From Candidatus Latescibacterota bacterium (GTDB lineage Bacteria; Latescibacterota; UBA2968): a stretch of 64,000 bases of DNA. The notes beneath the pieces are model-generated. The model saw nothing but the letters and a program-made list of their open reading frames with translations. It ran no database searches and was not told the origin of the DNA. How positions within the stretch are numbered: the first letter of the stretch is position 1; every line of letters begins with the position of its first letter. The DNA lies in the NCBI GenBank assembly GCA_965207885.1, contig OZ242311.1, forward strand, positions 5,760,001 to 5,824,000, given 5' to 3'. Positions 1 through 16,932 of the stretch are shown piece by piece. Made by a program: the position numbers and the translations under genes.

Positions 1-916
1 TACTTTCAGTCCATATATTCCGGCCACTTCGCTTAAGGGTGCAATACGTTCTCTCGCAGAAATCGTCGGAAATGCGGCTGTGCCGTTTCCAAATGTTTCG
101 GTTGATAGCCAACACGCATTGACACGAGCACGCACCAACAAGGGAGGGCGCTCGCAGGTTGACACTGTAGCCAGAACATTTGGCTATTTGCACGGTGGTA
201 ATGTCTTCGCTGGCTTGATACGCTTTAGTGACGCAGAAATCACTAAAGAACCGCTACCGCCAAACCAATGGCCACAGTACGATGTCGCTGTTGGTCAGCC
301 CAAGCAGAGCCATACTGCGTTTTATCCTGGAAATAATCAACGCAAATTCTATCACCACCGCCCCGGTGCCACACAGCTTACCGCACCACACGCTGGCATT
401 ACACAAACGAGTAGCGTACAACCTGCACCTCCCGGCACACGCTTTAACTTTACGGTGAACTTTGCAAATCTACGTAGCTCTGAACTCAACTTGCTACTCT
501 ACTGTCTGATGCTCGAAGAACAGGTCACTGTCACGCTAAGTCCAGCGGCACTTGGTCGTGATGAAGCGCAAGGACCTGTCATATTAGAGGGACCCATGCG
601 CCACAAAATGGGAGGTGCCAAACCTCATGGTGCTGGTTCGGTTCACATTCGTATCACCAGGATGGAGTTGCGTACAGATGCGATGGCACGCTACCGGGGT
701 AACGATTCTATTGAAACCTATAAAGCAGAAGATCTTACAAATGAATTCGAAAATCGTACCGCATCATTTCGGAATCGCACCGATCAAACGATGCAAGAAT
801 TACGCGCCATGTTGATCTATTCTCTCGAGGATCCCAGACAGCCGATACATTATCCGACCTATGGATGGTTTCGAAATGGGAACAATGCAGGCACGCAGTT
901 AAAGCCTACAATATAG
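1..916 (+). CDS. CRISPR RAMP superfamily protein (Cas7 group, type III, probably III-D), 5' truncated by window edge
   Basis: Frame is open from base 2: PYIPATSLKGAIRSLAE (RAMP N-terminal motif), RKFYHH, and G-rich loop HKMGGAKPHGAGSV; lies next to a CARF gene and a CRISPR array. Confidence 0.85.
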   Translation, partial: TFSPYIPATSLKGAIRSLAEIVGNAAVPFPNVSVDSQHALTRARTNKGGRSQVDTVARTFGYLHGGNVFAGLIRFSDAEITKEPLPPNQWPQYDVAVGQPKQSHTAFYPGNNQRKFYHHRPGATQLTAPHAGITQTSSVQPAPPGTRFNFTVNFANLRSSELNLLLYCLMLEEQVTVTLSPAALGRDEAQGPVILEGPMRHKMGGAKPHGAGSVHIRITRMELRTDAMARYRGNDSIETYKAEDLTNEFENRTASFRNRTDQTMQELRAMLIYSLEDPRQPIHYPTYGWFRNGNNAGTQLKPTI

Positions 917-1015
917 CGGCAGGAATTACTCTTGAAAACAGCCCCAAACCAGTAGGGTGACCCGTGTCATCCCTTGATGATAGACGGCGGAATTGGTTTA
1001 TAGAAAGGTAAGCAT

Positions 1016-2287
1016 ATGAAACTGGCGATGTTAGTGACTGTAGGCGTAGGCAGTACTGTTTCAGATGGGATCGTATTCGCTATTCGGCACAGGCGGCCAG
1101 ATTTTGTGATGTTTCTGACTACGTTGCAAAGTGAAGAACTCACCATTCCCAATCTTCTTGAAACACTCAAGTTAGATCCCGAAGCATATCAATGTCGCCG
1201 TGTAGATGACGAAAATGACGTTGAAAAATGTACGTTGGATTTCATCTCGGTGATCCAAAATCTGAAAAACCGGGGATTTGATTCGGAAGACATTGTAGCG
1301 GATTACACATCGGGTACAAAGGCAATGTCGGCAGGACTTGTGGCCGCTGGTCTTGAGGCCGCCCTTGGAGAACTATCTTATATTGCTGGAGAACGCGATG
1401 AGGGCCGTGTTGTCTCGGGAACGGAACGCGCTATATCGCTTGCACCAAACCGATTGAGAGTACGCCGCATTGTAGAACAGGCCATAACGGAGTTCAACTC
1501 CGTTCGGTTTGATACCTGTCTGGACATGCTGAACCAGATCAAAGAATTGATTCGCCTGCAGAGTGTCAGGCAAGCTGTTAATACATTGCAGGCTCTTGCA
1601 TTGGGATACCGCGCCTGGGATCAATTCGATTACACATTGGCCATGTCCGAACTGGATGGACTGACAGGCAATGCACATCTATCCGAATGGGGATTAAAAA
1701 GAAGGCTGGAACGGCACAAAGGTTTTTTATACCGCGTCAAAAATTTCGATTATGGCGTAGAGCGTGCTACAGACTTGTGGAATAGCGCAGAAAGACGCAA
1801 AGCGGAAGGACGTTTTGATGATGCCGTAGCCCGGCTCTATCGGCTAATTGAATATATCGCACAGGTGCGGCTGTTCCGCAATCACAATGGACTAAAAACA
1901 AGTGATCTGGATATAAGCTTGTTGCCCGAATCCCTGCGTGCTTCGTACAAAGAAAAAGCTGGACGATCTGGAAAAATTGAACTCGGGTTATATGAGAGCT
2001 ATGCGTTGTTAAAAGCTCTCGACAATGATCTGGGCCAGTTCTTCATAGCCAAGTATGATGAAACAGAAGAATTAAAAAAAGTATTAGGGCTGCGAAATCA
2101 GTCGATTCTTGCACACGTATTTGGACCTCTATCTCAAAATGGATGTAAAACGGCCCAGTCTTCTGTACGGTCATTGATGGATCAGGCATTCCGGAACTGG
2201 GAAGACACTGCTCGTGAATCTGCTTTTCCAAAACTGAACACATCTCAAGTGATCCCAAGTCTGAATTTATCAAATGGGTTCGGATAA
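1016..2287 (+). CDS. CARF-HEPN CRISPR ancillary ribonuclease, TIGR02710 family (Csm6/Csx1-like)
   Basis: N-terminal LVTVGVG and DYTSGTKAMSAGL CARF motifs; DDAVARLYRLIE; C-terminal HEPN-like RNQSILAH. Confidence 0.85.
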   Translation: MKLAMLVTVGVGSTVSDGIVFAIRHRRPDFVMFLTTLQSEELTIPNLLETLKLDPEAYQCRRVDDENDVEKCTLDFISVIQNLKNRGFDSEDIVADYTSGTKAMSAGLVAAGLEAALGELSYIAGERDEGRVVSGTERAISLAPNRLRVRRIVEQAITEFNSVRFDTCLDMLNQIKELIRLQSVRQAVNTLQALALGYRAWDQFDYTLAMSELDGLTGNAHLSEWGLKRRLERHKGFLYRVKNFDYGVERATDLWNSAERRKAEGRFDDAVARLYRLIEYIAQVRLFRNHNGLKTSDLDISLLPESLRASYKEKAGRSGKIELGLYESYALLKALDNDLGQFFIAKYDETEELKKVLGLRNQSILAHVFGPLSQNGCKTAQSSVRSLMDQAFRNWEDTARESAFPKLNTSQVIPSLNLSNGFG

Positions 2288-2301
2288 TTTGTAAAAAGAT
2301 G

Positions 2302-2328
2302 ATCAGGATGTATTACCCGGCATTGTGG
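2302..2328 (+). repeat. Orphan degenerate CRISPR repeat just after the CARF gene stop
   Basis: ATCAGGATGTATTACCCGGCATTGTGG aligns with the repeat 5' part ATCAGGAAGAATTACCCGCTTATTGGGG. Confidence 0.6.
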
Positions 2329-2641
2329 CCGATCTCAACGACTGGATAGAGGGAGGTTAAAAGAGACTTCATAGTTTAATTCAAGCCAGTGGATGCGACC
2401 CAGAGACGTTTATCAATGTCATGCTGGCAGTTTGAGCGTGTAGCGAACAACGTGCGTGAGGATTACAGGCATTTCCTCATGTGCTGGTGGGTCGCAAATT
2501 TCTAACCTTTTGCAGGAGTGTGTATTATGAACAGAGCCGTGAATGCAATTTTTCATTTTTGGGAGGATTTTGTATGTCAAAATGGCCTGAGTCGCAAACC
2601 GCCTTGTAATTGCTTGCGAGACAGGAAATAACGCAGACGGT
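2329..2641 (+). promoter_or_regulatory. Probable CRISPR leader
   Basis: Non-coding ~310 bp immediately before the first canonical repeat; repeats end in ATTGAAAC and degenerate toward the far end, implying + strand transcription from this side. Confidence 0.7.
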
Positions 2642-4496
2642 ATCAGGAAGAATTACCCGCTTATTGGGGTATTGAAACTTTGGCACTTCGCCAGCACATC
2701 GCTACCATTGCGTTGGGATCAGGAAGAATTACCCGCTTATTGGGGTATTGAAACAAAAAGAGTGGACGGTATTTTGGAACGAATCGGTGCCAGTCAATCA
2801 GGAAGAATTACCCGCTTATTGGGGTATTGAAACTCTGCTATAGCGGTGAAATGAGGGGACGGCAGGGAGGGATATCAGGAAGAATTACCCGCTTATTGGG
2901 GTATTGAAACCGCGTCCAATCAAAAGATCGGACGCCGCAAAATATAGTTAATCAGGAAGAATTACCCGCTTATTGGGGTATTGAAACCTGAGCAGATCGA
3001 TACCAACATACGCGAACTTGAAGGCGCATCAGGAAGAATTACCCGCTTATTGGGGTATTGAAACTTGGACGAGCCTGTTTTGGCTCCAAATGTTACCACC
3101 ATCAGGAAGAATTACCCGCTTATTGGGGTATTGAAACCGGTTGATCTCGTAGATGAGGTTGGTAAGTTCTACCCAATCAGGAAGAATTACCCGCTTATTG
3201 GGGTATTGAAACGTGAAAATTAACTGCCGTTTCTGCTTTCGCTTTTTCAAGACAATCAGGAAGAATTACCCGCTTATTGGGGTATTGAAACCTGGGTATG
3301 CACATCCGACCAGATGATCGGCACTGGGCCTGATCAGGAAGAATTACCCGCTTATTGGGGTATTGAAACTTGCCGCTGCCGTCGGGGTCAATCGCGTTCA
3401 GGGCGATCAGGAAGAATTACCCGCTTATTGGGGTATTGAAACGGTTGCTGCCTGTCCCAGAATCGCCTGGATTGCCGTGCGAATCAGGAAGAATTACCCG
3501 CTTATTGGGGTATTGAAACCAGGTACATGCGCCCGCGCTAAACAAGTTTTCAGCAGATCAGGAAGAATTACCCGCTTATTGGGGTATTGAAACCTGCCTC
3601 GAACTCTGCCATTTTTTCTTCTGAGATTTTTATATCAGGAAGAATTACCCGCTTATTGGGGTATTGAAACTCCTCGTCATCATCCCCAATCCCTGGGGAT
3701 ATTGATGCTATCAGGAAGAATTACCCGCTTATTGGGGTATTGAAACTTTCTCCATCGCCCTGCCACGTAAAATTCGTGTGTTCAAAAATCAGGAAGAATT
3801 ACCCGCTTATTGGGGTATTGAAACTTTTACAGTTTTTGCTACAGCCTGAAATTCTGCCATTATCAGGAAGAATTACCCGCTTATTGGGGTATTGAAACCA
3901 GTCGATGATGGCATAGCGATCCAACGTCGCGGCGTATCAGGAAGAATTACCCGCTTATTGGGGTATTGAAACCTCAATATGATAAATTATGTTGGCCGCA
4001 TCCCAGTATCAGGAAGAATTACCCGCTTATTGGGGTATTGAAACTTGCATAATTGTCCGATCGGGATTTATATTTTTGGATATATCAGGAAGAATTACCC
4101 GCTTATTGGGGTATTGAAACGGTTATCTTTGTGTCTGGTTGATTTTGGCAAATGCTAATCAGGAAGAATTACCCGCTTATTGGGGTATTGAAACTTTTTT
4201 GAGGGCGGGACTTGCTCCGACCGCACAAAGAAATCAGGAAGAATTACCCGCTTATTGGGGTATTGAAACTATCGAAGGATTTGCGCTTAAACATTTCCTT
4301 TCGGGCTTATCAGGAAGAATTACCCGCTTATTGGGGTATTGAAACCGGGGTTGTCTGATTTATGAGGACTGAATTTGTTGTTATCAGGAAGAATTACCCG
4401 CTTATTGGGGTATTGAAACAGATTCTGCTTCTGGGTCATCTTCGAGGTGTTTTTGGGCAATCAGGAAGAATTACCCGCTTATTGGGGTATTGAAAC
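2642..4496 (+). CRISPR. CRISPR array segment 1: 25 identical 37-bp repeats with ~35-42 bp spacers
   Basis: Repeat ATCAGGAAGAATTACCCGCTTATTGGGGTATTGAAAC from 2642 to 4460-4496; TACCC/GGGTA hairpin and ATTGAAAC handle typical of Cas6-processed arrays. Confidence 0.99.
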
Positions 4497-4501
4497 GAGA
4501 A

Positions 4502-6898
4502 GTAGGGTAGGCTGCTGGCGAGTTACCCAAAGGCACTTTTCCATCAGCCCCCCTCCGAACCGGACGTGATAGTTTCCCATCATCCGGCTCTCCAGTAACT
4601 TTCACCGTTTTGAGGTCGGCCCGCCTCGATGGATGTTGATATGACAGCTTTTACAGACGACAAGTGTTTTTCTGCGTCTTGCTGCCATTTTATGTTTCCA
4701 TCTTGGCTTTTTCTTCCTTCCCGGCTTGTCCACATCCGTTAGTTTGCGTATGTGGTGAACTTCTACTTCTTGCCGAGAACCACATAATTCACATTCTGAT
4801 GCCGTTAAGCGTTGTATTAGCTCGCTACGACTCCAGTATGGTTTTATGTCTTTCAGGCCGTCCTTGATTACCGCGTTCTCTGTGTTGCGTATTAAGGGAA
4901 CCCCTCCAAAGTATGCGATTAGGGGCTTTTTACCTTCTCTTTCTACGGTTACTTGTATGCATTTTCGTGGGCCTCTTGGGGTAATTACTTTACCCTTATA
5001 TTTCCTTGCCGTTTTTCTCACTTGCGATTTGTGTTTATTCGCAAGTGTCTTTAGCAGGGACGTTTGTATGACCCATTCCAATTTGCTCAGTCTCCGTATG
5101 TTGTTTGCGAGTTGGTAGTATTGCACAAAGCCTCTATATTCCCTTTGATAGCGGGATATGATGTCAAAGTCGCTGTCCTGTAACAATTGTGGTCGCGCCT
5201 CTGGCTTCCCGTTTCTCATATAGGTATTGCATCTCGCATCACTTACATCTTTGGGGATGTATAAGCCGAGTCTTCCATTAATGGCCCTTTTCTTAATGTA
5301 GCTGTCCATTTGTGTGTTACTGAAATATCCCTTGATTTCGTATCCTAAAAATCTGGCTCTTTCGGTGGTTACGTGGGTTATTAGGGTCTTTTCTTCTGAA
5401 AGTTCGAGCTTCATATCTTGCAGGAATTTCTTTAGAATTGACTTAATTCCCCTTGCTTCCATTTTGGAGCCTACTAATCCTATTAGGAAGTCGTCAGCGT
5501 ATCTTATGTAGTATATTCTTTTGAAATCGGGGTCGTCTTGGAGTGAGCAGGGTATTTTCTGCATCTTCTGTCTATACTCCTTTGCTTCTTCAAATCGACC
5601 TTTCTTTTTCAGGTGATATACTTTGTTAATCAGATACCTGTATTCAGGGTTTTTCTTTCGGCTTTTTCCTTTTGTGAATAGAGATTTGAGGGTGTTTTCA
5701 ACAAATTTATCCAGTCTATCGAGGTAGATATTTGAGAGTATCGGGCTTACGATTCCCCCTTGTGGCGTTCCGCTCAAGGTGGGTGTGTAATTCCAATTCT
5801 CCATATATCCTGCTTTGAGTAGATTGGATATTAACCGCAGAAATCGGTTGTCTCGGATTTTCTCTCGGAGTATTGATAGTAAGATTTGGTGGTCTATATT
5901 ATCGAAGCACCCCTTAATATCTCCTTCGACAAACCATTTCGTTCCGTTCCACTTTTTGACTGCTTGTAATGCCGTGTGACAGCCTTTATTTGGTCGGAAC
6001 CCGTGAGACAAGCTGCTAAATTGCGGTTCATAATACGCTTCTAATATGGAGCGTATTACTTCCTGCACAAGTTTGTCTGTCCACGTAGGAATGCCTAACG
6101 GTCGCATTTTACCGTTTTTCTTTGGTATATGTGTCCGTCTCACTGGAGTCCATCTGAAGCGTTCATAGCGTATTTGTTCTATGATTGCTTTAATTTTCTT
6201 CAGTGACATTCCATCAACGGTTTCTTCCGTTATACCTTTGGTCATTGCGCCTTTGTTGCGTTGAATGCGACTGTAGGCCCGCAGGTATAGATCGGGGTTG
6301 AACATTTGTCGATAAACGTCTTCAATGGGTAATCCTCTTAAACCTCGATTTCGGATGATACCTAATACTGTTTCGGCGTCTCGCATCTCGCGTGCCTCCT
6401 GTATTATTGTATCCAGTTACCTGTTTTCCTTCGCCTTGTGGACGGCTTTCCCGTCCTCTGACTACTATGAAAACTCCGTTACCATAGGACTCGCGTCCCG
6501 TAGGCAATCCCGTGTTTTTCTGTTGTGGTCTGTATTAGTGTGGGTTAGGTAGTCCACTCATTCCTTAAATGAGCTACATTGCTCATCGTTGGCAGTTCCA
6601 AAGGTTATGGGAAAGCATTGGTTAATTTCCCATAAAACTGATACCGGTATCGGACGACTTTCCGGTAGGGCGAAGCGACCGTCCTTCTGGAATTGGACTT
6701 CGGGCAGTTTAGCTCTTACCATACCACACAGGTCTTGCGGAGCAAATGTTTTTGTCGCCTTCTCTACATTCTCCGCTTTACGAATATGCTATTTTCCCTT
6801 TCGCCTTTCGGTTCCGGTTGATTCGTTGACCTATGGACGTTCCTTTGAGTCCATCCTGATTTAGTCAGGAATACCACATCAGACGCTACACGGCGCAC
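4502..6898 (-). mobile_element. Complete group II intron (IIA, LtrB/ML-like) inserted inside a CRISPR spacer
   Basis: Minus strand starts GTGCG at 6898; domain V GAGAGCCGGATGATGGGAAACTATCACGTCCGGTTCGGAGGGG near 4550-4592; ends ...CCTACCCTAC at 4502; removing it restores a 38-nt spacer. Confidence 0.93.
4602..6386 (-). CDS. ltrA: Group II intron reverse transcriptase/maturase with C-terminal HNH endonuclease
   Basis: RPLGIPTWTDKLVQ, GTPQGGIVSPILSNIYL, YIRYADDF, maturase X domain, CELCG...EVHHIRKL...VCKSCHINIH. Confidence 0.95.
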   Translation of the reverse strand: MRDAETVLGIIRNRGLRGLPIEDVYRQMFNPDLYLRAYSRIQRNKGAMTKGITEETVDGMSLKKIKAIIEQIRYERFRWTPVRRTHIPKKNGKMRPLGIPTWTDKLVQEVIRSILEAYYEPQFSSLSHGFRPNKGCHTALQAVKKWNGTKWFVEGDIKGCFDNIDHQILLSILREKIRDNRFLRLISNLLKAGYMENWNYTPTLSGTPQGGIVSPILSNIYLDRLDKFVENTLKSLFTKGKSRKKNPEYRYLINKVYHLKKKGRFEEAKEYRQKMQKIPCSLQDDPDFKRIYYIRYADDFLIGLVGSKMEARGIKSILKKFLQDMKLELSEEKTLITHVTTERARFLGYEIKGYFSNTQMDSYIKKRAINGRLGLYIPKDVSDARCNTYMRNGKPEARPQLLQDSDFDIISRYQREYRGFVQYYQLANNIRRLSKLEWVIQTSLLKTLANKHKSQVRKTARKYKGKVITPRGPRKCIQVTVEREGKKPLIAYFGGVPLIRNTENAVIKDGLKDIKPYWSRSELIQRLTASECELCGSRQEVEVHHIRKLTDVDKPGRKKKPRWKHKMAARRRKTLVVCKSCHINIHRGGPTSKR

Positions 6899-6931
6899 CT
6901 AATGAGGCTTTGGGTAGATCGTTCACACCCA

Positions 6932-7554
6932 ATCAGGAAGAATTACCCGCTTATTGGGGTATTGAAACTTCGATGCGGGAGCGACCAGCGGCTTGAATCT
7001 TAACAACTGATCAGGAAGAATTACCCGCTTATTGGGGTATTGAAACTATTGCGAGAGAAGATGTTCGCAGATCGAAAGATCCATCAGGAAGAATTACCCG
7101 CTTATTGGGGTATTGAAACTCGAGCTTGACGATGCGCTCTTCGTGGTTGGCGAGACGATCAGGAAGAATTACCCGCTTATTGGGGTATTGAAACGCGTCA
7201 AGGTCTCTGCGTATCTGGTCGAAATTGTCCTCGGATCAGGAAGAATTACCCGCTTATTGGGGTATTGAAACAAATATACTGCACACCACAAGCAGAGCAT
7301 CTCAAAAGTGCATCAGGAAGAATTACCCGCTTATTGGGGTATTGAAACCCGCGGACAGCGAGCGCAAAATCGTCGCAGTCGCTTCTGATCAGGAAGGATT
7401 ACCCGCTTACTGGGGTATTGAAACAATAGCTTGCGGATACACACAGCAAACTCGTTGTAATCATCAGGAAGGATTACCCGCTTACTGGGGTATTGAAACG
7501 AAACTGTCTTACTTTTTTACTTCGGGAATGATTTTGGGATCAGGAAAGATTACC
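6932..7554 (+). CRISPR. CRISPR array segment 2: 8 full repeats (last two variant) plus a truncated repeat at 7539
   Basis: Repeats at 6932, 7010, 7083, 7158, 7235, 7312, 7388, 7463; ATCAGGAAAGATTACC fragment at 7539-7554. Confidence 0.97.
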
Positions 7555-7588
7555 TGTTTACAAAAAGAAAAAGGAGAGGAAACAAGTG

Positions 7589-7932: not shown

Positions 7933-10062
7933 ATGAATAAAATAGTCTCAAGAATCTCCAGATACTTCAGAAGATGGTATGATGAAATCAAGTTGCAGCA
8001 AGTCCTTAAAGAATGCTGTCACGTAGCGCGCGAAGGATACCGGATTGCAAGTGCCAACCTTGATGAAATCAAGATCACTATAGACGGAGAAGTTTCGAAA
8101 TTGAAATCACACCTGGCAACTTTGAATAATGAGAATATCCAAACAGACCACATTGAACAACAGATACAAAAACAACTACAACAAGTGGTGTCAGAACTCG
8201 GCTCTTTGCACAAAAGCCAAGTGCGCCTTCTGGAAGAGAAACACTCACAAATGGACAAATTTTCAATTGCCCTCTTTGGTCGCACACTGGCTGGTAAATC
8301 AACATTGATGGAAATTTTGACCAAAGGCGATGGTTCATCCATCGGAAAGGGAAACCAACGCAATACCCGAGATGTGCGTAGCTACGACTGGAAAGGACTT
8401 AAAATCACTGATGTCCCCGGCGTAGCTGCATCTGACGATGAAGGCCGTGAGGACGAAGAAAAAGCATTCGAGGCGGCTGTGCAGTCGGACCTGGTGCTTT
8501 TCCTCATCACCAACGATGCGCCCCAGGACTCAGAAGCAAGGTGCCTCGCACGCGTGCGATCACAAGGCAAGTCGATTCTGGGTATCTTGAATTTTAAAGA
8601 GGGTCTCAACAATGAGGACGATATACGAATTTTCTTGCGAGATAACTGGTTCAAAAATGATCGGCAGGATATCCACGACATCGTTCAACAGTTCCACGAA
8701 TCTGTGAACAAATATAGCCCGGGGAATCGGATCAGGTTCCTTTATACCCATTTGCTATCGAGATTCCTATCTCAACAGCCGCAGTACAAATCGCACCAGA
8801 ATAATTTGGAACGCGCAAGCCGCTTCGACTATGTCGAACAGCAAATTATATCGGAGGTAATTAACCGGGGAAGATTCCTGAAATGGAAGAGCTTTATCGA
8901 CATTTCCGTAGTTCCAATGCTTGAATTTAGCGATAAATTATTGGAGTTTAGTGCCCAGAACTCATCCAGTGGTAGAATTTTCCTTGGCAAAAGGGACCAG
9001 ACCCAATCATGGTCTGATGGATTTAGCAAAAGTGGCAAAGAACGCATTGATACGTTTATAAAAAAAGAAATGAACTTGCTGCGTGATGAAATTCCGGGAT
9101 TTGCGGAGACCTATTATGACCGATCTAATGCTGGCGATCGCTGGAACCGCTTAGTCAAAAAGCAAGGCATAGAGCGGAAAGCAAAAAAACTTGCTGAACA
9201 GATCCAGAATGAATGTAAATCTGAACTGTCAGAGATTGCACGACAACTTAAATTTGCACTGAATTCCGTCGGTAAATTTGCTGATGATCGCAAAATTAGC
9301 ATGGATTCTATATTCGATACAAAACGCGCCTGGAATTGGGGGACTACAATTCTTTCGGGTGGTCTTGGTATTGCTGCTCTCATTCTTGGTAGCGGTCCTA
9401 TCGGCTGGGTTGCGGCAGCAGTTGCGGGATTAGGGCGCTTGATATCATGGCTTTTAGGTGACCGCGAAAAAAAAGCGAGAAAGCAACGCAAAAAACTCGA
9501 AAAGATGCTCAATAGCGAAGTCAACAAGATAGAAAGTAATATTCGAAAACAGCTCAATGATTGGTTTCAGGGTGTACTGAAAAATCAAGTCGCTGTCCTT
9601 ATCAAAGACCTCTCTACTACCACATCGAATCTCTTCAAGCTGGCAGATGTACAAAGAACTCTGGCCTGGGCACTCAACAAAGGACAGAAACGTCTCCACC
9701 GCGATCTACTCAATGAAGCACTCGATCAACTTGGACAAAAAGATAAAGGGAACCTCATATTAGATATAGCGCGAGTACCAGGACTGGCAATTATGTTATT
9801 GATAGAGCCTAAAACTACATTTCCAAAGGACGTACGCAGGAATTTAGAAAAAATACTTGGAGAAAAGGTTTGGTTCGTAGTCAATACCCGTAACAAAACC
9901 TCAATTCTGGCGCAGGCTATTGGGCACGACTGTGATCGAAGCAAAGTTCGTATCAAATCAAAAATTCAAGTTGCCCATGTTCCGGTAGGAGACCTTAATG
10001 CAGTTGGTATTTCTCGAATCAGACTAGCGCAACAACTGACCGAACTCCATGTGATGAAGTAA
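7933..10062 (+). CDS. Dynamin-like GTPase, LeoBC-like (Eleos defence system)
   Basis: N-terminal coiled coil, P-loop FGRTLAGKST, TRDVRSY, ITDVPG, hydrophobic paddle GGLGIAALILGSGPIGW; paired with a LeoA-like gene. Confidence 0.75.
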   Translation: MNKIVSRISRYFRRWYDEIKLQQVLKECCHVAREGYRIASANLDEIKITIDGEVSKLKSHLATLNNENIQTDHIEQQIQKQLQQVVSELGSLHKSQVRLLEEKHSQMDKFSIALFGRTLAGKSTLMEILTKGDGSSIGKGNQRNTRDVRSYDWKGLKITDVPGVAASDDEGREDEEKAFEAAVQSDLVLFLITNDAPQDSEARCLARVRSQGKSILGILNFKEGLNNEDDIRIFLRDNWFKNDRQDIHDIVQQFHESVNKYSPGNRIRFLYTHLLSRFLSQQPQYKSHQNNLERASRFDYVEQQIISEVINRGRFLKWKSFIDISVVPMLEFSDKLLEFSAQNSSSGRIFLGKRDQTQSWSDGFSKSGKERIDTFIKKEMNLLRDEIPGFAETYYDRSNAGDRWNRLVKKQGIERKAKKLAEQIQNECKSELSEIARQLKFALNSVGKFADDRKISMDSIFDTKRAWNWGTTILSGGLGIAALILGSGPIGWVAAAVAGLGRLISWLLGDREKKARKQRKKLEKMLNSEVNKIESNIRKQLNDWFQGVLKNQVAVLIKDLSTTTSNLFKLADVQRTLAWALNKGQKRLHRDLLNEALDQLGQKDKGNLILDIARVPGLAIMLLIEPKTTFPKDVRRNLEKILGEKVWFVVNTRNKTSILAQAIGHDCDRSKVRIKSKIQVAHVPVGDLNAVGISRIRLAQQLTELHVMK

Positions 10063-10081
10063 CTCAGAAAGGAATCATTTA

Positions 10082-11818
10082 ATGAAAGAAATACATATCC
10101 ATTCATATACAAAAAAAGGAGAGTGTCTGCTTGAGAGAGCAAAACAGGTTCTCCAAGATGCACCTGTCGATAAGGTACGGAACTTTGCACAACGGGTTCC
10201 AAGAGGAATGGCAACTTCTGAAGAAGCCGTTCAGGTAGTCTTTGCCGGTCAATACAGTGCAGGTAAGTCTTCAATTCTCAAGGCAATGACGGGACAAGAA
10301 GATATCGAGATAGGAGCTGGGATTACGACTCGACGGACACAACAGTTTGACTGGAATGGAATCAGAGTAGTGGATACGCCGGGTGTCCATACGGAGTTAC
10401 GACCCGACCATGACAAAATAACGTACGGGGCAATCAGTAAAGCCGACCTCCTGATCTTTGTTATTACCAATGAATTATTTGACTCCCATATAGCAACACA
10501 TTTTAGAAAACTTGCAATTGATCGGGATAAAGCCCATGAAATGCTGTTGGTTGTGAACAAGATGCAGCGATGTGACAAGGGAAATACATCAGCGGCTCAG
10601 GATGTAATTCGGGAAGACCTTCGAAAAGATCTATTGCCCTTCTCTCCAGAACAACTTCGTATATCTTTCTTGGATGCTGAAGACGCTCTCAAGATCCGCA
10701 CAGAGCAGGACGAAGAATACCGCAGAATCTACCATAAAAGAAGTGGTTTTGATGCCTTCATCGATAATTTCAATGCGTTTATTAAAGAAAAGGAATTAAT
10801 CGCACGTTATACAACACCGCTCTACACCCTCGAACAAGTACTACAAGAGGCCCTCGCAGTCGAGCCGAGCGATGACCCTGATGTGGATGCCCTACAAGAG
10901 TTATTAATTCAGCAAAGACGCGCATTATTGGATAGTAAAGCACAGATTTCTCAATCAGTAAAAAATAAAGTCCAACAGACAACAAACAAGATTCGGGAGG
11001 AAGGTCGCAATGTTGCTGATCTGATTCGTGGAAATTCGGACTTTGAGAAAGTTGATCGGGAATTAACGGCTGCCCAAGAGCGCGTTCAAGAATATGTGGA
11101 TTCATTGACGGAACTCGTTCAAGAAACAGTTGAAGAGCATATTAGCGATCTCGCTGAGCGGATAGAGCAAATCGCGGAGAGCGAACTCGCCAAAGAGTTA
11201 CTATCGAGGCTTATAGAAAGACTCCAAGGTCTCAATGTTGATCCAGAGACTCTATCTAAGGTAAAAAAGGGCGCAGATTTCGCCAGCCGATTTGGGAAAT
11301 TCCTCGTTAAGAACTCGTTTAATCCTACGACCTCGACATTTTCCGGATTGTTCAAACTCCACCAGTATTCGGGTACAGCAATGCACGGCATGGTCAAAAA
11401 TATAGGACATTTCTTAGGAAAGTCCTTTAAGCCTTGGGAAGCAGTAAAATGGACGCGTACAATCGCAAATGCTGGTCGAGTTTTGAGCGTAGTAGGCACT
11501 GTTCTAACCATTGTGTTTCAAATTAAAGAAGACGCCGATGCTGCTAATTTAGAACAGGAATTGCGCGAAAGCCGAACTGCTGTAAGGGCGGGATTTAGTG
11601 AGGCCGCCAGTGCAATTGAACTCCATTTTGATGAAGCAACCAACACTTATGTAGCCAAAACCATTGGTCAGCGTCTCGAAGAGGTAGATAAGCAACTTGA
11701 GGAACTCAGAGATATGAAGCAATCTCGTAGCGATCTCTTTCAACAACTCAATGGCCTATTAGAAGATACGAAGGAGCTTATCTCGGAAATGCATGTGTCG
11801 TATAACCCCCATGAATGA
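10082..11818 (+). CDS. leoA: Dynamin-like GTPase, LeoA-like (Eleos defence system)
   Basis: FAGQYSAGKSS, GITT, VDTPG, VVNKM G-motifs, FKPWEAVK motif, coiled-coil C-terminus; 578 aa. Confidence 0.75.
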   Translation: MKEIHIHSYTKKGECLLERAKQVLQDAPVDKVRNFAQRVPRGMATSEEAVQVVFAGQYSAGKSSILKAMTGQEDIEIGAGITTRRTQQFDWNGIRVVDTPGVHTELRPDHDKITYGAISKADLLIFVITNELFDSHIATHFRKLAIDRDKAHEMLLVVNKMQRCDKGNTSAAQDVIREDLRKDLLPFSPEQLRISFLDAEDALKIRTEQDEEYRRIYHKRSGFDAFIDNFNAFIKEKELIARYTTPLYTLEQVLQEALAVEPSDDPDVDALQELLIQQRRALLDSKAQISQSVKNKVQQTTNKIREEGRNVADLIRGNSDFEKVDRELTAAQERVQEYVDSLTELVQETVEEHISDLAERIEQIAESELAKELLSRLIERLQGLNVDPETLSKVKKGADFASRFGKFLVKNSFNPTTSTFSGLFKLHQYSGTAMHGMVKNIGHFLGKSFKPWEAVKWTRTIANAGRVLSVVGTVLTIVFQIKEDADAANLEQELRESRTAVRAGFSEAASAIELHFDEATNTYVAKTIGQRLEEVDKQLEELRDMKQSRSDLFQQLNGLLEDTKELISEMHVSYNPHE

Positions 11819-11834: not shown

Positions 11835-12172
11835 GTCAAGAAAGGATTACCCGACTACTGGGGTATTGAAACTCATCACCGAGACGTTCTTTGGTTGAAT
11901 ACTTCCCTTCGAATCAGGAAAGATTACCCGACTACTGGGGTATTGAAACGTATCTGTCACCATTACGATATAGTTGTTTCCATCGGCAATCAGGAAGGAT
12001 TACCCGCTTACTGGGGTATTGAAACCAGACCTCAGCAGCTTCGTTTGCATCAACGACGATTATCAGGAAGGATTATCCGACTACTGGGGTATTGAAACAT
12101 GTCCGCCTCGCAGAAGTTCATCTCGTTCATCTTCCGAAGATCAGGAAGAAATTACCCGACTACTGGGGTATT
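11835..12172 (+). CRISPR. CRISPR array segment 3: 5 variant repeats (first 5'-degenerate, last lacking GAAAC), 4 spacers
   Basis: Repeats at ~11835, 11913, 11989, 12062, 12140, mostly of form ATCAGGAAGGATTACCCGACTACTGGGGTATTGAAAC. Confidence 0.95.
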
Positions 12173-12291
12173 TACCATTTTTAGGGTTGTGCTTGTAGTG
12201 TAGCCTCAGATTCTCTATCTTTTGAATAGATCTTAATACAGAATACAGAGGATGTGCGTCCAACCACGATATGCTATGGGAGGAGATGCCA

Positions 12292-12555
12292 ATGAACCAG
12301 CTAACATTAAGCGGATTTGACAAAGAATTGACCGATAGAATCCGGCATTTCGCAAACCAGGAGGGTATTTCGCTAAATCAAGCCGCGTTGAGACTTCTGC
12401 GCGTTGGGGCCGGTCTCAAGCAATCAAAGGATAGCGGCGACACCGTTGGATCTTCCCTGGACCATCTAATTGGAACCTGGACGGTCGAGGAAGCTGAGGT
12501 ATTGAATAATGCCGTAAAAGAATTGGAACAAATTGACGAGTCTATGTGGAAATGA
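12292..12555 (+). CDS. Antitoxin (ribbon-helix-helix, FitA/VapB-like)
   Basis: MNQLTLSGFDKEL...GISLNQAALRLL, DHLIGTWT; ATGA overlap with the PIN toxin. Confidence 0.8.
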   Translation: MNQLTLSGFDKELTDRIRHFANQEGISLNQAALRLLRVGAGLKQSKDSGDTVGSSLDHLIGTWTVEEAEVLNNAVKELEQIDESMWK

Positions 12556-12950
12556 AAATTCTCCTTGACACCAATGCGTATTCACATCTGAAGCGAGGGC
12601 ATCGCAGGGTTGCGGCGTTAGTACGCATGTCCGAGGAAATTTTCCTGTCAGCTATTATCATTGGCGAATTGCTCTACGGCTTTCGGCAAGGCTCGCGCAT
12701 TGACCGGAATATTGAGGAACTTAAAGCCTTCCTCAACAACCCCTATGTCACATTTGTACCTATAAGTTTCGCAACAGCCGAACATTACGCGCAGATTGCA
12801 ATGTCGTTGAGAACCAAGGGGCGTCCCATCCCGTCAAACGACATTTGGATCGCTGCTCAAGCAATGGAGACAGGTGCCAATCTCGTTTCGTCTGATCAGC
12901 ATTTTTCAGAAATTGATGGTCTCGCGTGGACATACGTCTCGACTGAATAA
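12552..12950 (+). CDS. vapC: VapC PIN-domain toxin
   Basis: ILLDTNAY, GELLYG, IPSNDIWIAAQA, LVSSDQHF. Confidence 0.93.
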   Translation: MKILLDTNAYSHLKRGHRRVAALVRMSEEIFLSAIIIGELLYGFRQGSRIDRNIEELKAFLNNPYVTFVPISFATAEHYAQIAMSLRTKGRPIPSNDIWIAAQAMETGANLVSSDQHFSEIDGLAWTYVSTE

Positions 12951-13233: not shown

Positions 13234-13349
13234 ATCAGGAAGGATTACCCGACTACTGGGGTATTGAAACCTTTCGCTTGACTAATAATAATATAATATA
13301 AAACCCTTCCGAATCAGGAAGGATTACCCGACTACTGGGGTATTGAAAC
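13234..13349 (+). CRISPR. CRISPR array segment 4: two variant repeats, one AT-rich spacer
   Basis: ATCAGGAAGGATTACCCGACTACTGGGGTATTGAAAC at 13234 and 13313. Confidence 0.93.
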
Positions 13350-13360
13350 TGTGCCTGGAT

Positions 13361-13531: not shown

Positions 13532-13569
13532 GTCAGGAAGGATTACCCGATTTATTGGGATCGTGAAAT
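13532..13569 (+). repeat. Orphan degenerate CRISPR repeat
   Basis: GTCAGGAAGGATTACCCGATTTATTGGGATCGTGAAAT resembles the variant repeat. Confidence 0.8.
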
Positions 13570-13606: not shown

Positions 13607-13701
13607 TTGGTTGAAATTAAACCGCCAAAAAGAGTAACATAAGCCACAGGTGTCCCCCACATGTGGTTATATTTTTCTCTAAAAAAGAAAGGAATCTCCC
13701 C

Positions 13702-15630
13702 ATGACAACCCCTGCCATTGAACAGTCGTCTCCCACATCTCTGGTAGATACCCTCTGCGAAAAAGCACAGGTGCTATTAGAACAAAACAATATAGATGGC
13801 GTGGAGACATTGGCTTCGGAAGCCTGTGCGCGCGATCCGGCGTGCAATCGCGCACATCAATTGATGCTCCGCGTAGCCCTCATCCGAGACGAACAGGACA
13901 AAGCACAAACATTGCTCAATCGGTGGCGCGATTTGCCGGTAGATGATGCATTTGGTGAATGGGGTGTACTCGCAGAAGAAATGAACGACATACAGTCAGC
14001 CGTTGAAATCTATCAGGCGCACCTATCTCAGTGCCCTGACGATGCCAAATCCCTATTTGGACTGGCAATGCTACACGCAGACCGCAATGAAACGGGCCTC
14101 GCGCAATCGCGCTTGCAAACCCTCATCCAGCACCATGCAGACCATATAGAGGGCATCTTTGAACTCGCCCGCCTGTACGAAGAAGACGGCATGATGGGCC
14201 TCGCCCAAGAACTCTACGCACGGGTGCTCGAACTCGATCCGGACCATGCGGGCGCACTTGCGGGTAAACAACTCGTCGGCGCACAATTGCAAACATCCCA
14301 AACCTTACCAGATGCAACCATCAAAAATCACCCCGATAGTGCCGCCCTGATCCTCAGGCTATTTGCCGCGCGAAAAGACGTGTACGCACGCCAATGGATC
14401 GATGAAGACGGAAAAACCGGCTATGTCCCCGTGCGCGAACCCCTCACAGAAGACGCGATCCAATCCCACCTCCAGGGAGATACAACTGTAGGCGTCTATC
14501 CAATTTTTGACCGGGACAAAGCACAATTTTTGGCCCTGGATATCGACATAAAAAAAGAAGCCCTCAACACAGCGCAGCAAAACAACACCTTAATGGATGC
14601 GTTGCGCGAACAAGTATGCAAAGACATCCGGCGGGTCTGCGCGGGCTTCGCCTCCCTCAACCTCCCTGTTCACATCGAAGACAGCGGAAACAAAGGCGCG
14701 CATATATGGCTCTTCTTTGAAAAACCCATCCGCGCCTGCGACCTCCGCGCATTTGGTCGTGCTTTTGTAAAGCGATTTGGCCCAGCATCAGAAGATTTGC
14801 AGTGGGAGTGGTTTCCCAAACAAGACGCCGTTGGGGAAGATGAACTGGGCAACCTGATCAAACTACCACTCGGCATCCACCGCAAAACAGGACGACGCGC
14901 GTTATTTATCGACACAGAAGGACACGCGCTCGCAGATCAAGATCGGGTATTGTGTGACATCAAACCCATAAACACACAGGCTTATGACCATGCGGTCTCC
15001 CGCTTGGGCGGAGGAGAGACCCACACGCCCCTGAAACAAGTTGATCTGAAAAAAGCATTTCCAGAATTTCAACCCCTTATGCAAGGCTGTGCAGTCATTC
15101 GCGCACTCACAGAAAAAGCCTTTGCAACCGCCCATCTGGTACACATCGAACGCCATGTTTTGAAATGCGTATTCGGGCATCTCGACGACAAGGGACGCGC
15201 CTTCTTACACGCGGTAATTGGCGCGTGTGCAGATTACAAAGCCGAAGTAACCGATTATCAGATCGAACGCCTGCACCCGCATCCCATTGGCTGTCCGAAA
15301 ATCCGCAAACACCTGCCCGACCTCATTGAAACCGTCCCCTGCAACTGCGAATTTGACCTGCCAGAAGGCGGGTATCCCTCTCCCTTGCTACATATCGACC
15401 CGGCATTTACCGCTGGCATGGGACGTGTGGATCAACCGCAAAACCGCGAAATCGTAGATCGCTACATCACACTGCGCCAGCAAGCCGCACAGGTAATGGC
15501 CGACCTATCGCGTACAGAAGATGAAATGCGCGACATATTGCGCGACCGCAAAGGCAAAATCTCCACAGGCGTCTGGGTAGTCACAGCGGATGACGCGGGA
15601 CGATTGCAAATAGGCATTGAGGCGGTGTAA
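13702..15630 (+). CDS. CRISPR-associated primase-polymerase (CAPP): TPR + AEP + Cys-rich C-terminal domain
   Basis: TPR repeats; ALDIDI, EDSGNKGAHIWLFF, FPKQD, GNLIKLPLG AEP motifs; C-terminal Cys cluster; directly upstream of cas1-cas2; start inferred from RBS. Confidence 0.88.
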   Translation: MTTPAIEQSSPTSLVDTLCEKAQVLLEQNNIDGVETLASEACARDPACNRAHQLMLRVALIRDEQDKAQTLLNRWRDLPVDDAFGEWGVLAEEMNDIQSAVEIYQAHLSQCPDDAKSLFGLAMLHADRNETGLAQSRLQTLIQHHADHIEGIFELARLYEEDGMMGLAQELYARVLELDPDHAGALAGKQLVGAQLQTSQTLPDATIKNHPDSAALILRLFAARKDVYARQWIDEDGKTGYVPVREPLTEDAIQSHLQGDTTVGVYPIFDRDKAQFLALDIDIKKEALNTAQQNNTLMDALREQVCKDIRRVCAGFASLNLPVHIEDSGNKGAHIWLFFEKPIRACDLRAFGRAFVKRFGPASEDLQWEWFPKQDAVGEDELGNLIKLPLGIHRKTGRRALFIDTEGHALADQDRVLCDIKPINTQAYDHAVSRLGGGETHTPLKQVDLKKAFPEFQPLMQGCAVIRALTEKAFATAHLVHIERHVLKCVFGHLDDKGRAFLHAVIGACADYKAEVTDYQIERLHPHPIGCPKIRKHLPDLIETVPCNCEFDLPEGGYPSPLLHIDPAFTAGMGRVDQPQNREIVDRYITLRQQAAQVMADLSRTEDEMRDILRDRKGKISTGVWVVTADDAGRLQIGIEAV

Positions 15631-15631
15631 T

Positions 15632-16633
15632 GTGTCCGTACTCTACGTCACAGAAACCGGTGCTCAGGTACGACGCGAAGGCGAGCGATTGACCGTGTGG
15701 AAAGGCAAGAAAAAACTCCACACATCATCTGCGTATGATCTGCACCAGGTGGTCATATTTGGCAACATCGGAATAACACCTGCTGCCATGCACACCGCGC
15801 TGATGCAGGGCATTGACCTCGTACTTCTCAGCACCACGGGCAGTTATCGCGGGCGACTGGTGGGACCACAGGGCCGCAACATCATTCTGCGACAAATGCA
15901 ATATCGCCGCTACGAAGACGAAGATTTTCGATTGGGTGCTGCGCGGGGATTTGTATCGGGAAAAATCCGCAACATGCGTACCCTCATAATGCGCCTTGCT
16001 CGACGTCGAAACCGGGACATTGCCCACACCGCACAGCGACTGCGCGCACTCTTAAAACAGGTCGATCGCATAGACAATGCCGATGCGCTACGCGGAATCG
16101 AAGGCGCGGCAACCGCGACTTACTTCGGTGCGCTGGGTCAATTTTTGCCCTCTGCATTTCCCTTTGTCAAACGCACGCGACGCCCGCCCAAAGACGCGGT
16201 CAACTCCATGTTGAGCTTTGGCTATACGCTACTGTCTTCGGACCTGGAATCGGCTGTCTTGCGCGTGGGATTAGATCCCTATATCGGTTATCTGCATCTC
16301 GTGGATTACGGACGTCCCTCGCTCGCCCTGGACATGATGGAAGAATTTCGCCCGATAATTGTAGATGCAATGGTACTGGACCTGCTGAATCACGGACAAA
16401 TCAAAAAAGAGGACTTTGAACAACGCGACGGAGGCGTATTTCTGTGTGGCGATGGACGAATGCAGTTAATTCGCGCCTATCAGGATCGCGTCGCAACTGA
16501 AGTTCAATATGTACAACCCAGTGGACAGGTACAAAAAGTGCCGTATCGCCAGTGTTTTGAATTGCAAGCCCGCCGTCTCATTCGCCTGTTACGCGGTGAA
16601 GACGCGGCATATCTGCCGTTTTTAATTCGATAA
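15632..16633 (+). CDS. cas1: CRISPR-associated endonuclease Cas1
   Basis: LRGIEGAATATYF, RRPPKDAVNSMLSFGY, GYLH, SLALDMMEEFRP. Confidence 0.97.
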   Translation: MSVLYVTETGAQVRREGERLTVWKGKKKLHTSSAYDLHQVVIFGNIGITPAAMHTALMQGIDLVLLSTTGSYRGRLVGPQGRNIILRQMQYRRYEDEDFRLGAARGFVSGKIRNMRTLIMRLARRRNRDIAHTAQRLRALLKQVDRIDNADALRGIEGAATATYFGALGQFLPSAFPFVKRTRRPPKDAVNSMLSFGYTLLSSDLESAVLRVGLDPYIGYLHLVDYGRPSLALDMMEEFRPIIVDAMVLDLLNHGQIKKEDFEQRDGGVFLCGDGRMQLIRAYQDRVATEVQYVQPSGQVQKVPYRQCFELQARRLIRLLRGEDAAYLPFLIR

Positions 16634-16650
16634 ATGTAGAGACCAATACA

Positions 16651-16932
16651 ATGCTCGTGGTCGTAGCCTACGACATAGCGGACAAAAGCCGATTGCGGCG
16701 GGTGATGAAACTCATGGAAAACTACGGATCGCGCCGACAGAAAAGCGTTTTTGAATGCAATCTGAATGAGCGTCGGTTTCTCGCATTGAGGTCCAAAATG
16801 TCGGAATTGATTGACCCGGAAGACGATCGCATCTGTTATTATCATCTATGTGCCGCATGCGAAAAGCGGGTTGAAGGCATATCCGAGCGCGAACATCCCA
16901 TCCCAAAACGCGAAGATTATGTGATTGTGTGA
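16651..16932 (+). CDS. cas2: CRISPR-associated protein Cas2
   Basis: VVVAYDIAD, YGSRRQKSVFEC, DRICYYHLC. Confidence 0.97.
   Translation: MLVVVAYDIADKSRLRRVMKLMENYGSRRQKSVFECNLNERRFLALRSKMSELIDPEDDRICYYHLCAACEKRVEGISEREHPIPKREDYVIV

Follow-up and report, generated by a model that had tools for sequence, protein, structure and literature searches.

Mobile group II introns of the Ll.LtrB type (class IIA, mitochondrial-like) are the closest described relatives of the element analysed here, a group II intron at positions 4502-6898, minus strand, of a 64,000-nucleotide (nt) stretch of a Latescibacterota genome (G000:C1:5760001-5824000, hereafter the window; the genome is a single contig of 6.23 Mb), where it lies inside a spacer of a CRISPR array. 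In common with these introns it encodes a protein whose alignment with LtrA extends along the full length and which carries reverse transcriptase (RT), X and HNH domains; it begins with GTGCG, contains ribozyme domains V and VI, ends in AC and shows no target duplication, the hairpin loop of its exon-binding site 1 (EBS1) is complementary to the final 6-7 nt of the 5' exon, and it occupies its coding home gene in the sense orientation. It differs from them in its Latescibacterota host, in a home gene belonging to an uncharacterised small-protein family, in an EBS2 for which there are candidates only, and in that one of its two copies sits in a CRISPR spacer, antisense to transcription.

Group II introns retrotranspose ectopically into sites that resemble their homing site, and the present insertion shares with such events a non-cognate site and partial pairing between exon-binding and intron-binding sites (EBS/IBS); what sets it apart is that the look-alike appears to be a fragment of a homing-gene homolog kept in immune memory. 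A further likeness, by analogy only, is to the PIWI-interacting RNA (piRNA) clusters of animals, which capture transposons: here too an element lies antisense in a guide-producing locus and could in principle be targeted by its own guides, but the machinery is wholly different and an anti-element guide is only hypothetical in our case. Within the literature covered, the nearest described case is the repeat-directed family of Tn7-like transposons, which, in the excerpted account of PMC11837452 (Chacon Machado and Peters, 2025), recognise the CRISPR repeat through a TnsD-like protein and insert at a fixed position in many arrays. As in that account, a mobile element is found within the spacer region of an array; in contrast to it, the element is a retroelement and its insertion is unique, at a site explained by the content of the spacer and not by the repeat. 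The insert encodes an RT-maturase only and is a single insertion with none in related arrays, which places it outside the Tn7-like family. The literature search, which included the available portions of PMC8865420, 10.1101/2021.04.16.440249, PMC12479173 and PMC9950141, returned no group II intron inside a CRISPR spacer. The element itself is an ordinary LtrA-type intron, and it is the insertion event that appears new.

We consider it very probable that the intron, whose home is a chromosomal gene for a protein of 91 amino acids (aa), retrohomed into a spacer that the neighbouring type III system had acquired from a homolog of that same gene.

An intact intron within spacer 25

The features of the interrupted unit are as follows.

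2642-7560, plus strand: CRISPR array 1, 33 repeats, with a degenerate 34th included (repeat search)
4460-4496, plus strand: repeat 25 (repeat search)
4497-4501, plus strand: first 5 nt of spacer 25, which on the minus strand form the 3' exon of the intron (+1 to +5)
4502-6898, minus strand: group II intron, 2397 nt, IIA-like (Rfam, protein domains, second copy)
4502-4592, minus strand: ribozyme domains V and VI with a GAAA tetraloop, 3' end ...CCUACCCUAC (RF00029)
4602-6386, minus strand: intron-encoded protein, 594 aa (RVT_1, maturase and AI2M-like HNH; Pfam)
6615-6621, minus strand: EBS1, CCAAUGC, intron nt 278-284, in a hairpin loop (complementarity and alignment)
6899-6931, plus strand: last 33 nt of spacer 25, which on the minus strand form the 5' exon (-33 to -1)
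6932-6968, plus strand: repeat 26 (repeat search)

The repeat search gave 34 matches against none expected, one at 11989 and 33 in the main array, where the repeats, of 37 nt and each ending in ATTGAAAC, run from 2642 to 7499; the terminal two carry two changes each, and the degenerate 34th follows at about 7537-7560. Because of the repeat 3' end ATTGAAAC, the decayed far end and the co-orientation with the cas genes, the array is probably read on the plus strand. The intron lies on the minus strand and is antisense to it, as the first-pass annotation of this DNA had proposed. The 31 ordinary spacers of the main array measure 35-42 nt (mean 38.8), in contrast to the 2435 nt that separate repeat 25 from repeat 26. 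Subtraction of the 2397-nt intron restores a unit of 38 nt (5 + 33) with no duplicated junction bases, in agreement with the rejoined spacer of normal length that had been read from the sequence before.

The minus-strand ends of the intron, GTGCG at 6898 (5') and ...CCCTAC at 4502 (3'), follow the GUGYG/AY consensus. Both boundaries are also fixed, on independent grounds, by another 2397-nt copy, which is 100% identical and has different flanks; comparison of the two copies alone leaves an ambiguity of 1 nt at each end (G at -1 and T at +1 are common to both sites), which is resolved by the GTGCG consensus and the Rfam alignment. The earlier boundaries at 6898 and 4502 stand on all three counts. 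Domains V and VI align with the full RF00029 model (1-77) at 68.3 bits, against a gathering score of 40 (E 2.5e-11). The encoded protein shows the domains RVT_1, Intron_maturas2, GIIM and AI2M-like HNH, with a YADD motif at residue 296, and aligns with LtrA from residues 24-585 against 26-594 (E 6.4e-129). Judged by this protein, the intron would be assigned to a IIA-like class, and by its ends, ribozyme domains and open reading frame (ORF) it looks intact, as had been claimed at first sight.

The home gene and the likeness of spacer 25 to the homing site

The sole other copy of the intron in the genome lies 2.6 Mb away (3116209-3118605 of G000:C1), identical over all 2397 nt; two identical copies at different sites of one genome indicate recent transposition. 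This second copy interrupts, in the sense orientation, a small protein-coding ORF with a good ribosome-binding site, after codon 63 and inside a GTG codon that it splits. Removal of the intron in silico yields a 91-aa protein identical to P0004, which is recorded as a contiguous protein on 15 contigs of other assemblies, and accurate splicing is accordingly predicted to restore the home ORF; all 71 homolog loci in representative genomes are uninterrupted at the intron position. In the metagenome runs X1, X5 and X7 the intron 3' end is joined to exon 2 of this gene. In X5, where the intron differs at 12 positions, its 5' end likewise continues into exon 1. Because of these intron-exon joins, the 91-aa gene is the natural home of the intron.

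The last 33 nt of spacer 25 can be compared with the 5' exon of the home gene in a register that is locked by the insertion point. In this fixed register 24 of 33 positions are identical (binomial P 1.2e-8), and with the five 3' bases added, 26 of 38 (P 2.2e-8). Comparison of the 31 control spacers with the spliced home gene, at every offset and on both strands, did not exceed 19/33. A looser control with free offset, in which 345 spacers (from the window and the arrays of nine relatives) were set against 71 genes, reached 26/38 (68%), i.e., background, and the fixed register therefore matters, since by free choice of offset such a score arises by chance. The likeness extends to the coding level: read in the frame of the home gene, the spacer encodes GVNDLPKASLVL where the home gene encodes KVNDIPKAVLVL, with 9 of 12 residues equal. 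Third codon positions hold 6 of the 12 nucleotide differences between home and spacer sites, and all three amino-acid substitutions of the spacer peptide are found among family members. Two blocks, at -16 to -8 and -28 to -21, are identical between the sites.

This register-locked match in the same frame indicates that spacer 25 stems from a homolog of the homing gene and covers -33 to +5 of the homing site, and its source would be a diverged homolog rather than the resident home gene itself. The suggestion of the first-pass annotation that the protospacer might be the natural homing gene of the intron is thereby borne out in substance, with the difference that the gene in question would be a diverged relative. 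The spacer-encoded peptide was not present among the 120 listed of the 3402 family proteins.

EBS1 (CCAAUGC) pairs at 7/7 positions with the home site (-7 to -1) and at 5/7 with the spacer site. The intron was also aligned with four relatives borne on plasmids, from Calothrix, Nostoc, Streptomyces and Microvirga (53-60% protein identity), in which the loop at the same position is complementary to the end of each intron's own 5' exon (6/6, 5/6, 6/6 and 5/6, as read from the alignment), and this agreement supports the position of EBS1. The A immediately 5' of EBS1 is a candidate for the delta position and can pair with the T at +1 in both sites. UAUGG (intron nt 175-179) and CCUAAC (intron nt 349-354), which flank the EBS1 loop, we take to be the halves of a tetraloop-receptor motif.

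The home-gene family comprises 3402 proteins at E <= 1e-5, with members of 85-93 aa and an acidic tail. It is represented in Latescibacterota, Gemmatimonadota and DPANN archaea, and some genomes have two or three copies. Neither Pfam nor PHROG gave a match (searched with exon 1 and with a full-length homolog), a PDB profile search returned nothing below E 0.25, and the source names, where given among the family members listed, read 'hypothetical protein'. The AlphaFold model of the product (predicted local distance difference test, pLDDT, 83) consists of four strands and a long helix followed by the acidic tail. The best Foldseek match, a small single-stranded-DNA-binding protein, was set aside, as an E of 0.11 and a template-modelling (TM) score of 0.33 are too weak for naming; the fold may be PC4-like.

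Further intron sequences were seen in the course of these searches. Another genome of the genus contains, at an unrelated site (G079:C1:4426285-4427027), a 5'-truncated copy that comprises intron nt 1655-2397 with 93% identity and fits the pattern expected of incomplete reverse transcription. A segment of the window's own genome (G000:C1:4083319-4083967) with 63% identity to the intron ORF region probably belongs to a group II intron of another lineage. One 400-nt contig of run X7, matched to window positions 4502-4525 and 6660-6926, contains, in this order, the last 24 nt of a diverged intron, 105 other letters, a 28-nt stretch similar to the 5' exon, and intron nt 1-239; a distance of only about 133 nt between two intron ends is implied, whether as tandem sites, a circle or a graph artefact.

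Probable retrohoming into the spacer, its possible consequences and the alternatives

We suggest the following sequence of events. A resident, IIA-like mobile intron normally occupies the small 91-aa chromosomal gene. From a diverged homolog of this gene the neighbouring type III system probably once took up a spacer of 38 nt, which happened to cover the homing site from -33 to +5. The intron ribonucleoprotein could then have taken the spacer DNA as a target, guided by the partial EBS1 pairing (5/7), the two identical blocks and the T at +1. It would have reverse-spliced into the strand that matches the sense strand of the gene and, with priming of the second strand, been copied into DNA.

The orientation of the insertion is accounted for by the same scheme. 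A type III guide has to be antisense to the mRNA that it targets, and the guide strand of spacer 25 would, as required, be complementary to the mRNA of the gene from which the spacer came; this rule makes the bottom strand of the array the gene-sense one. Insertion into the gene-sense strand would therefore leave the intron antisense to the array and unable to splice from the CRISPR RNA (crRNA) precursor. The antisense orientation would thus be a consequence of geometry rather than a coincidence.

Several observations weigh against this reading and should be kept in view. It concerns a single event in one lineage, and the donor of the spacer is not apparent in the data: an exact search of viral and metagenome contig sets with the spacer 33-mer gave no match, blastn found none in phages and one chance match of 23 nt (E 3) in plasmids, the genome itself at up to three mismatches holds the spacer alone, and the best of the 71 homolog loci matches it at 28/38. 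Single-protein and alignment searches of viral contigs yielded no confirmed relative of the home gene, so that an origin of the spacer from a mobile element is unsupported. On the side of the intron, EBS2 scans and a six-row alignment gave two candidates of 5-6 bp, at intron nt 261-265 and at 296-301, and the upstream hairpin where EBS2 is expected offers no clear candidate; for either of the two, the corresponding IBS2 segment falls in a block that is identical between home and spacer sites. Past +1 the 3' exon is unlike the home site (2/5 in the spacer part, with the CRISPR repeat from +6 on), and because of this difference endonuclease-dependent cleavage of the second strand is left unexplained. 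Finally, the empty site, an uninterrupted spacer of the kind that the first-pass annotation had proposed to look for in reads or related strains, did not turn up: no contig joins 4501 to 6899 in runs X1, X5, X6 and X7, which does not amount to evidence of absence since contigs drop rare variants, and the spacer is absent from 20 other genomes of the genus, 13 of which have the repeat and none of which has a spacer in common with this array. The joints at 4348->6927 and 4351->7007 are repeat-to-repeat matches of other spacers.

For the array, the insertion would mean that the original guide from spacer 25 is lost, and that the eight downstream units, which now lie behind 2.4 kb of antisense intron, may suffer polarity. 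Three plus-strand terminator-like sites inside the intron (4978, 5547 and 6097) are weak, no more than chance would give, and do not argue for polarity; of the 34 terminator-like matches, 31 are CRISPR repeats read backwards, which inflates the scan. On the minus strand (2654-7341) the repeats take the form of a hairpin with a T-rich tail and may limit antisense transcription of the array. No promoter-like site was found on the minus strand between 2200 and 7700 in a consensus scan, and the intron copy in the array could be expressed only if the array were transcribed backwards.

The first-pass annotation had the spacer inactivated by the intron. As regards the original guide this probably holds, but it is incomplete, as the unit could yield a new guide from its 5' tag. 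In type III systems the 5' tag defines the crRNA, and trimming proceeds from its 3' end. The last 8 nt of repeat 25 (4489-4496), which we take to be the tag of the interrupted unit, are followed by the 5 nt of old spacer (4497-4501) and then by the antisense of the intron 3' end, so that a guide of tag, 5 nt and about 30 nt antisense to the intron is conceivable; it would cover domain VI and the 3' splice site and may be directed against the intron RNA and against home-gene transcripts that have yet to be spliced. As an addition to the retrohoming scenario this is a tentative idea, and on balance we think it unlikely. It draws on the geometry of the unit, on a system that looks complete (Cas6, Cas10 with GGDD, RAMPs, Csm6 and Csx1), and on the 3' flank of the home transcript, which can pair with the tag at no more than 3/8 positions, a wobble included, and would not be read as self. 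Strong autoimmunity is, however, argued against by the coexistence of home and array copies at 100% identity and by the persistence of the junction in runs of two studies. The first 5 nt of the guide would form two pairs and one wobble with the home transcript and have no partner on the excised lariat, and poor pairing of the first nucleotides of a guide weakens Cas10 activation; in addition, the 3' extension of 2.4 kb may be trimmed inefficiently. The broader proposition, that the array acts as a trap by which a retroelement creates immunity or regulation against itself and its home transcript, and that arrays holding fragments of conserved genes are predictable ectopic landing pads for introns and endonucleases that home, must count as improbable on present evidence.

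For the insertion itself, the foremost rival to retrohoming into a homing-gene fragment is a chance ectopic retrotransposition under relaxed targeting, the likeness of spacer and home site being a coincidence. Group II introns do insert ectopically, the truncated 93% copy at an unrelated site in G079 being a case at hand, and the EBS1-spacer pairing is imperfect (5/7). Coincidence is nonetheless hard to reconcile with 24 of 33 identities in a register that leaves no freedom (P ~1e-8), with in-frame conservation of the coding sequence and with controls that remain at or below 19/33; the 33-nt part, moreover, has no other copy in the genome at up to three mismatches, and we regard this explanation as very unlikely. 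Still less can be said for targeting through the CRISPR repeat at a fixed distance. The insertion does lie 5 nt from a repeat, whose reverse complement forms a hairpin followed by a T-rich tail; yet among the 33 repeats of this array only one has an insertion beside it, the arrays of the 13 repeat-sharing relatives of the genus have none, the home-site 3' exon and the repeat are unlike (4/12 positions), and the 5'-exon match alone accounts for the site. We would therefore give repeat recognition hardly any credence.

The remaining alternative concerns the assembly. The stretch is contained in metagenome runs that are mostly labelled as sponge metagenomes; parts of it also occur in the RNA runs X15 and X18-X20, and the relatives of one gene of the genome come almost entirely from Candidatus Latescibacterota. 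Run X6, whose study is not that of X1, the likely source run, has a 399-nt contig that matches 6563-6961 without differences (336 nt of intron and 63 nt of spacer and repeat), and an 87-nt unitig of X1 covers 6870-6956, likewise without differences; the 3' junction (4501/4502) is not bridged among the matches listed. Reads across both junctions had been named as a safeguard in the first-pass annotation, and this part is secured for the 5' junction only, among those matches. That the assembler misplaced a two-copy repeat into the array is scarcely credible: the intron is an exact 2.4-kb repeat and its 3' junction is unbridged among these matches, but both the X6 contig and the X1 unitig cross the 5' junction, and array sequence stands on both flanks with exactly 38 nt restored, where a chimera would be expected to show home-gene flank on one side.

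The type III locus and the meaning of the insertion

The other features that bear on the array are the following.

2-2287, plus strand: type III cas operon, 3' end (Pfam matches)
2-916, plus strand: RAMP protein (Pfam)
1016-2287, plus strand: Csm6 with HEPN domain (Pfam)
2290-2641, plus strand: presumed leader of the array, the non-coding stretch from csm6 to the first repeat (read from the sequence)
13663-16932, plus strand: adaptation module, presumed acquirer of spacer 25 (Pfam)
13663-15630, plus strand: TPR and AEP primase-polymerase protein (Pfam)
15617-16633, plus strand: Cas1 (Pfam)
16651-16932, plus strand: Cas2 (Pfam)

Directly upstream of the window lie genes for a CARF-sigma54 regulator, Cas6, a Csx1-like protein, Cas10, more RAMPs and a Cmr3-like protein. 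The cas10 product (539 aa) has the GGDD motif, and an N-terminal HD motif was not seen in it. With Cas10 and RAMPs, Cas6 and ancillary CARF/HEPN nucleases beside a regular array, the locus is, by its gene content, a type III CRISPR-Cas locus.

Within the adaptation module, the gene of the AEP/TPR protein (655 aa; Pfam AEP-TOTE, E 3e-46) runs into the beginning of cas1, with cas2 next, and the protein by description resembles the CRISPR-associated primase-polymerases in the available part of PMC8211822. Between the main array and two mini-arrays, at 7933-11818, are two neighbouring genes for large GTPases (709 and 578 aa), with MMR_HSR1, Dynamin_N and DLP_helical domains. The mini-arrays (11836-12180, about five copies, and 13234-13350, about two, with a degenerate copy near 13533) carry a variant repeat with the sequence of the last two, decayed repeats of the main array. 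Between them stand a PIN-domain toxin gene at 12546-12950, preceded by a small ORF, and a DUF4926 gene.

Being one event in one lineage, the insertion has for now the weight of a well-documented curiosity, barring more cases or RNA evidence. It provides a natural experiment nonetheless, in which positions -33 to +5 of a diverged homing site, with foreign sequence beside them, were enough for an LtrA-type intron to insert. CRISPR arrays are usually viewed as passive records, and here a stored fragment of 38 nt appears to have been a live DNA target for a retroelement. This opens a route by which immune memory may be damaged from within the cell, by mobile elements of the host itself rather than by phage. 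In an RNA-targeting type III system the rules of orientation would force such an insertion to be antisense, which raises the possibility of guides directed against the element itself.

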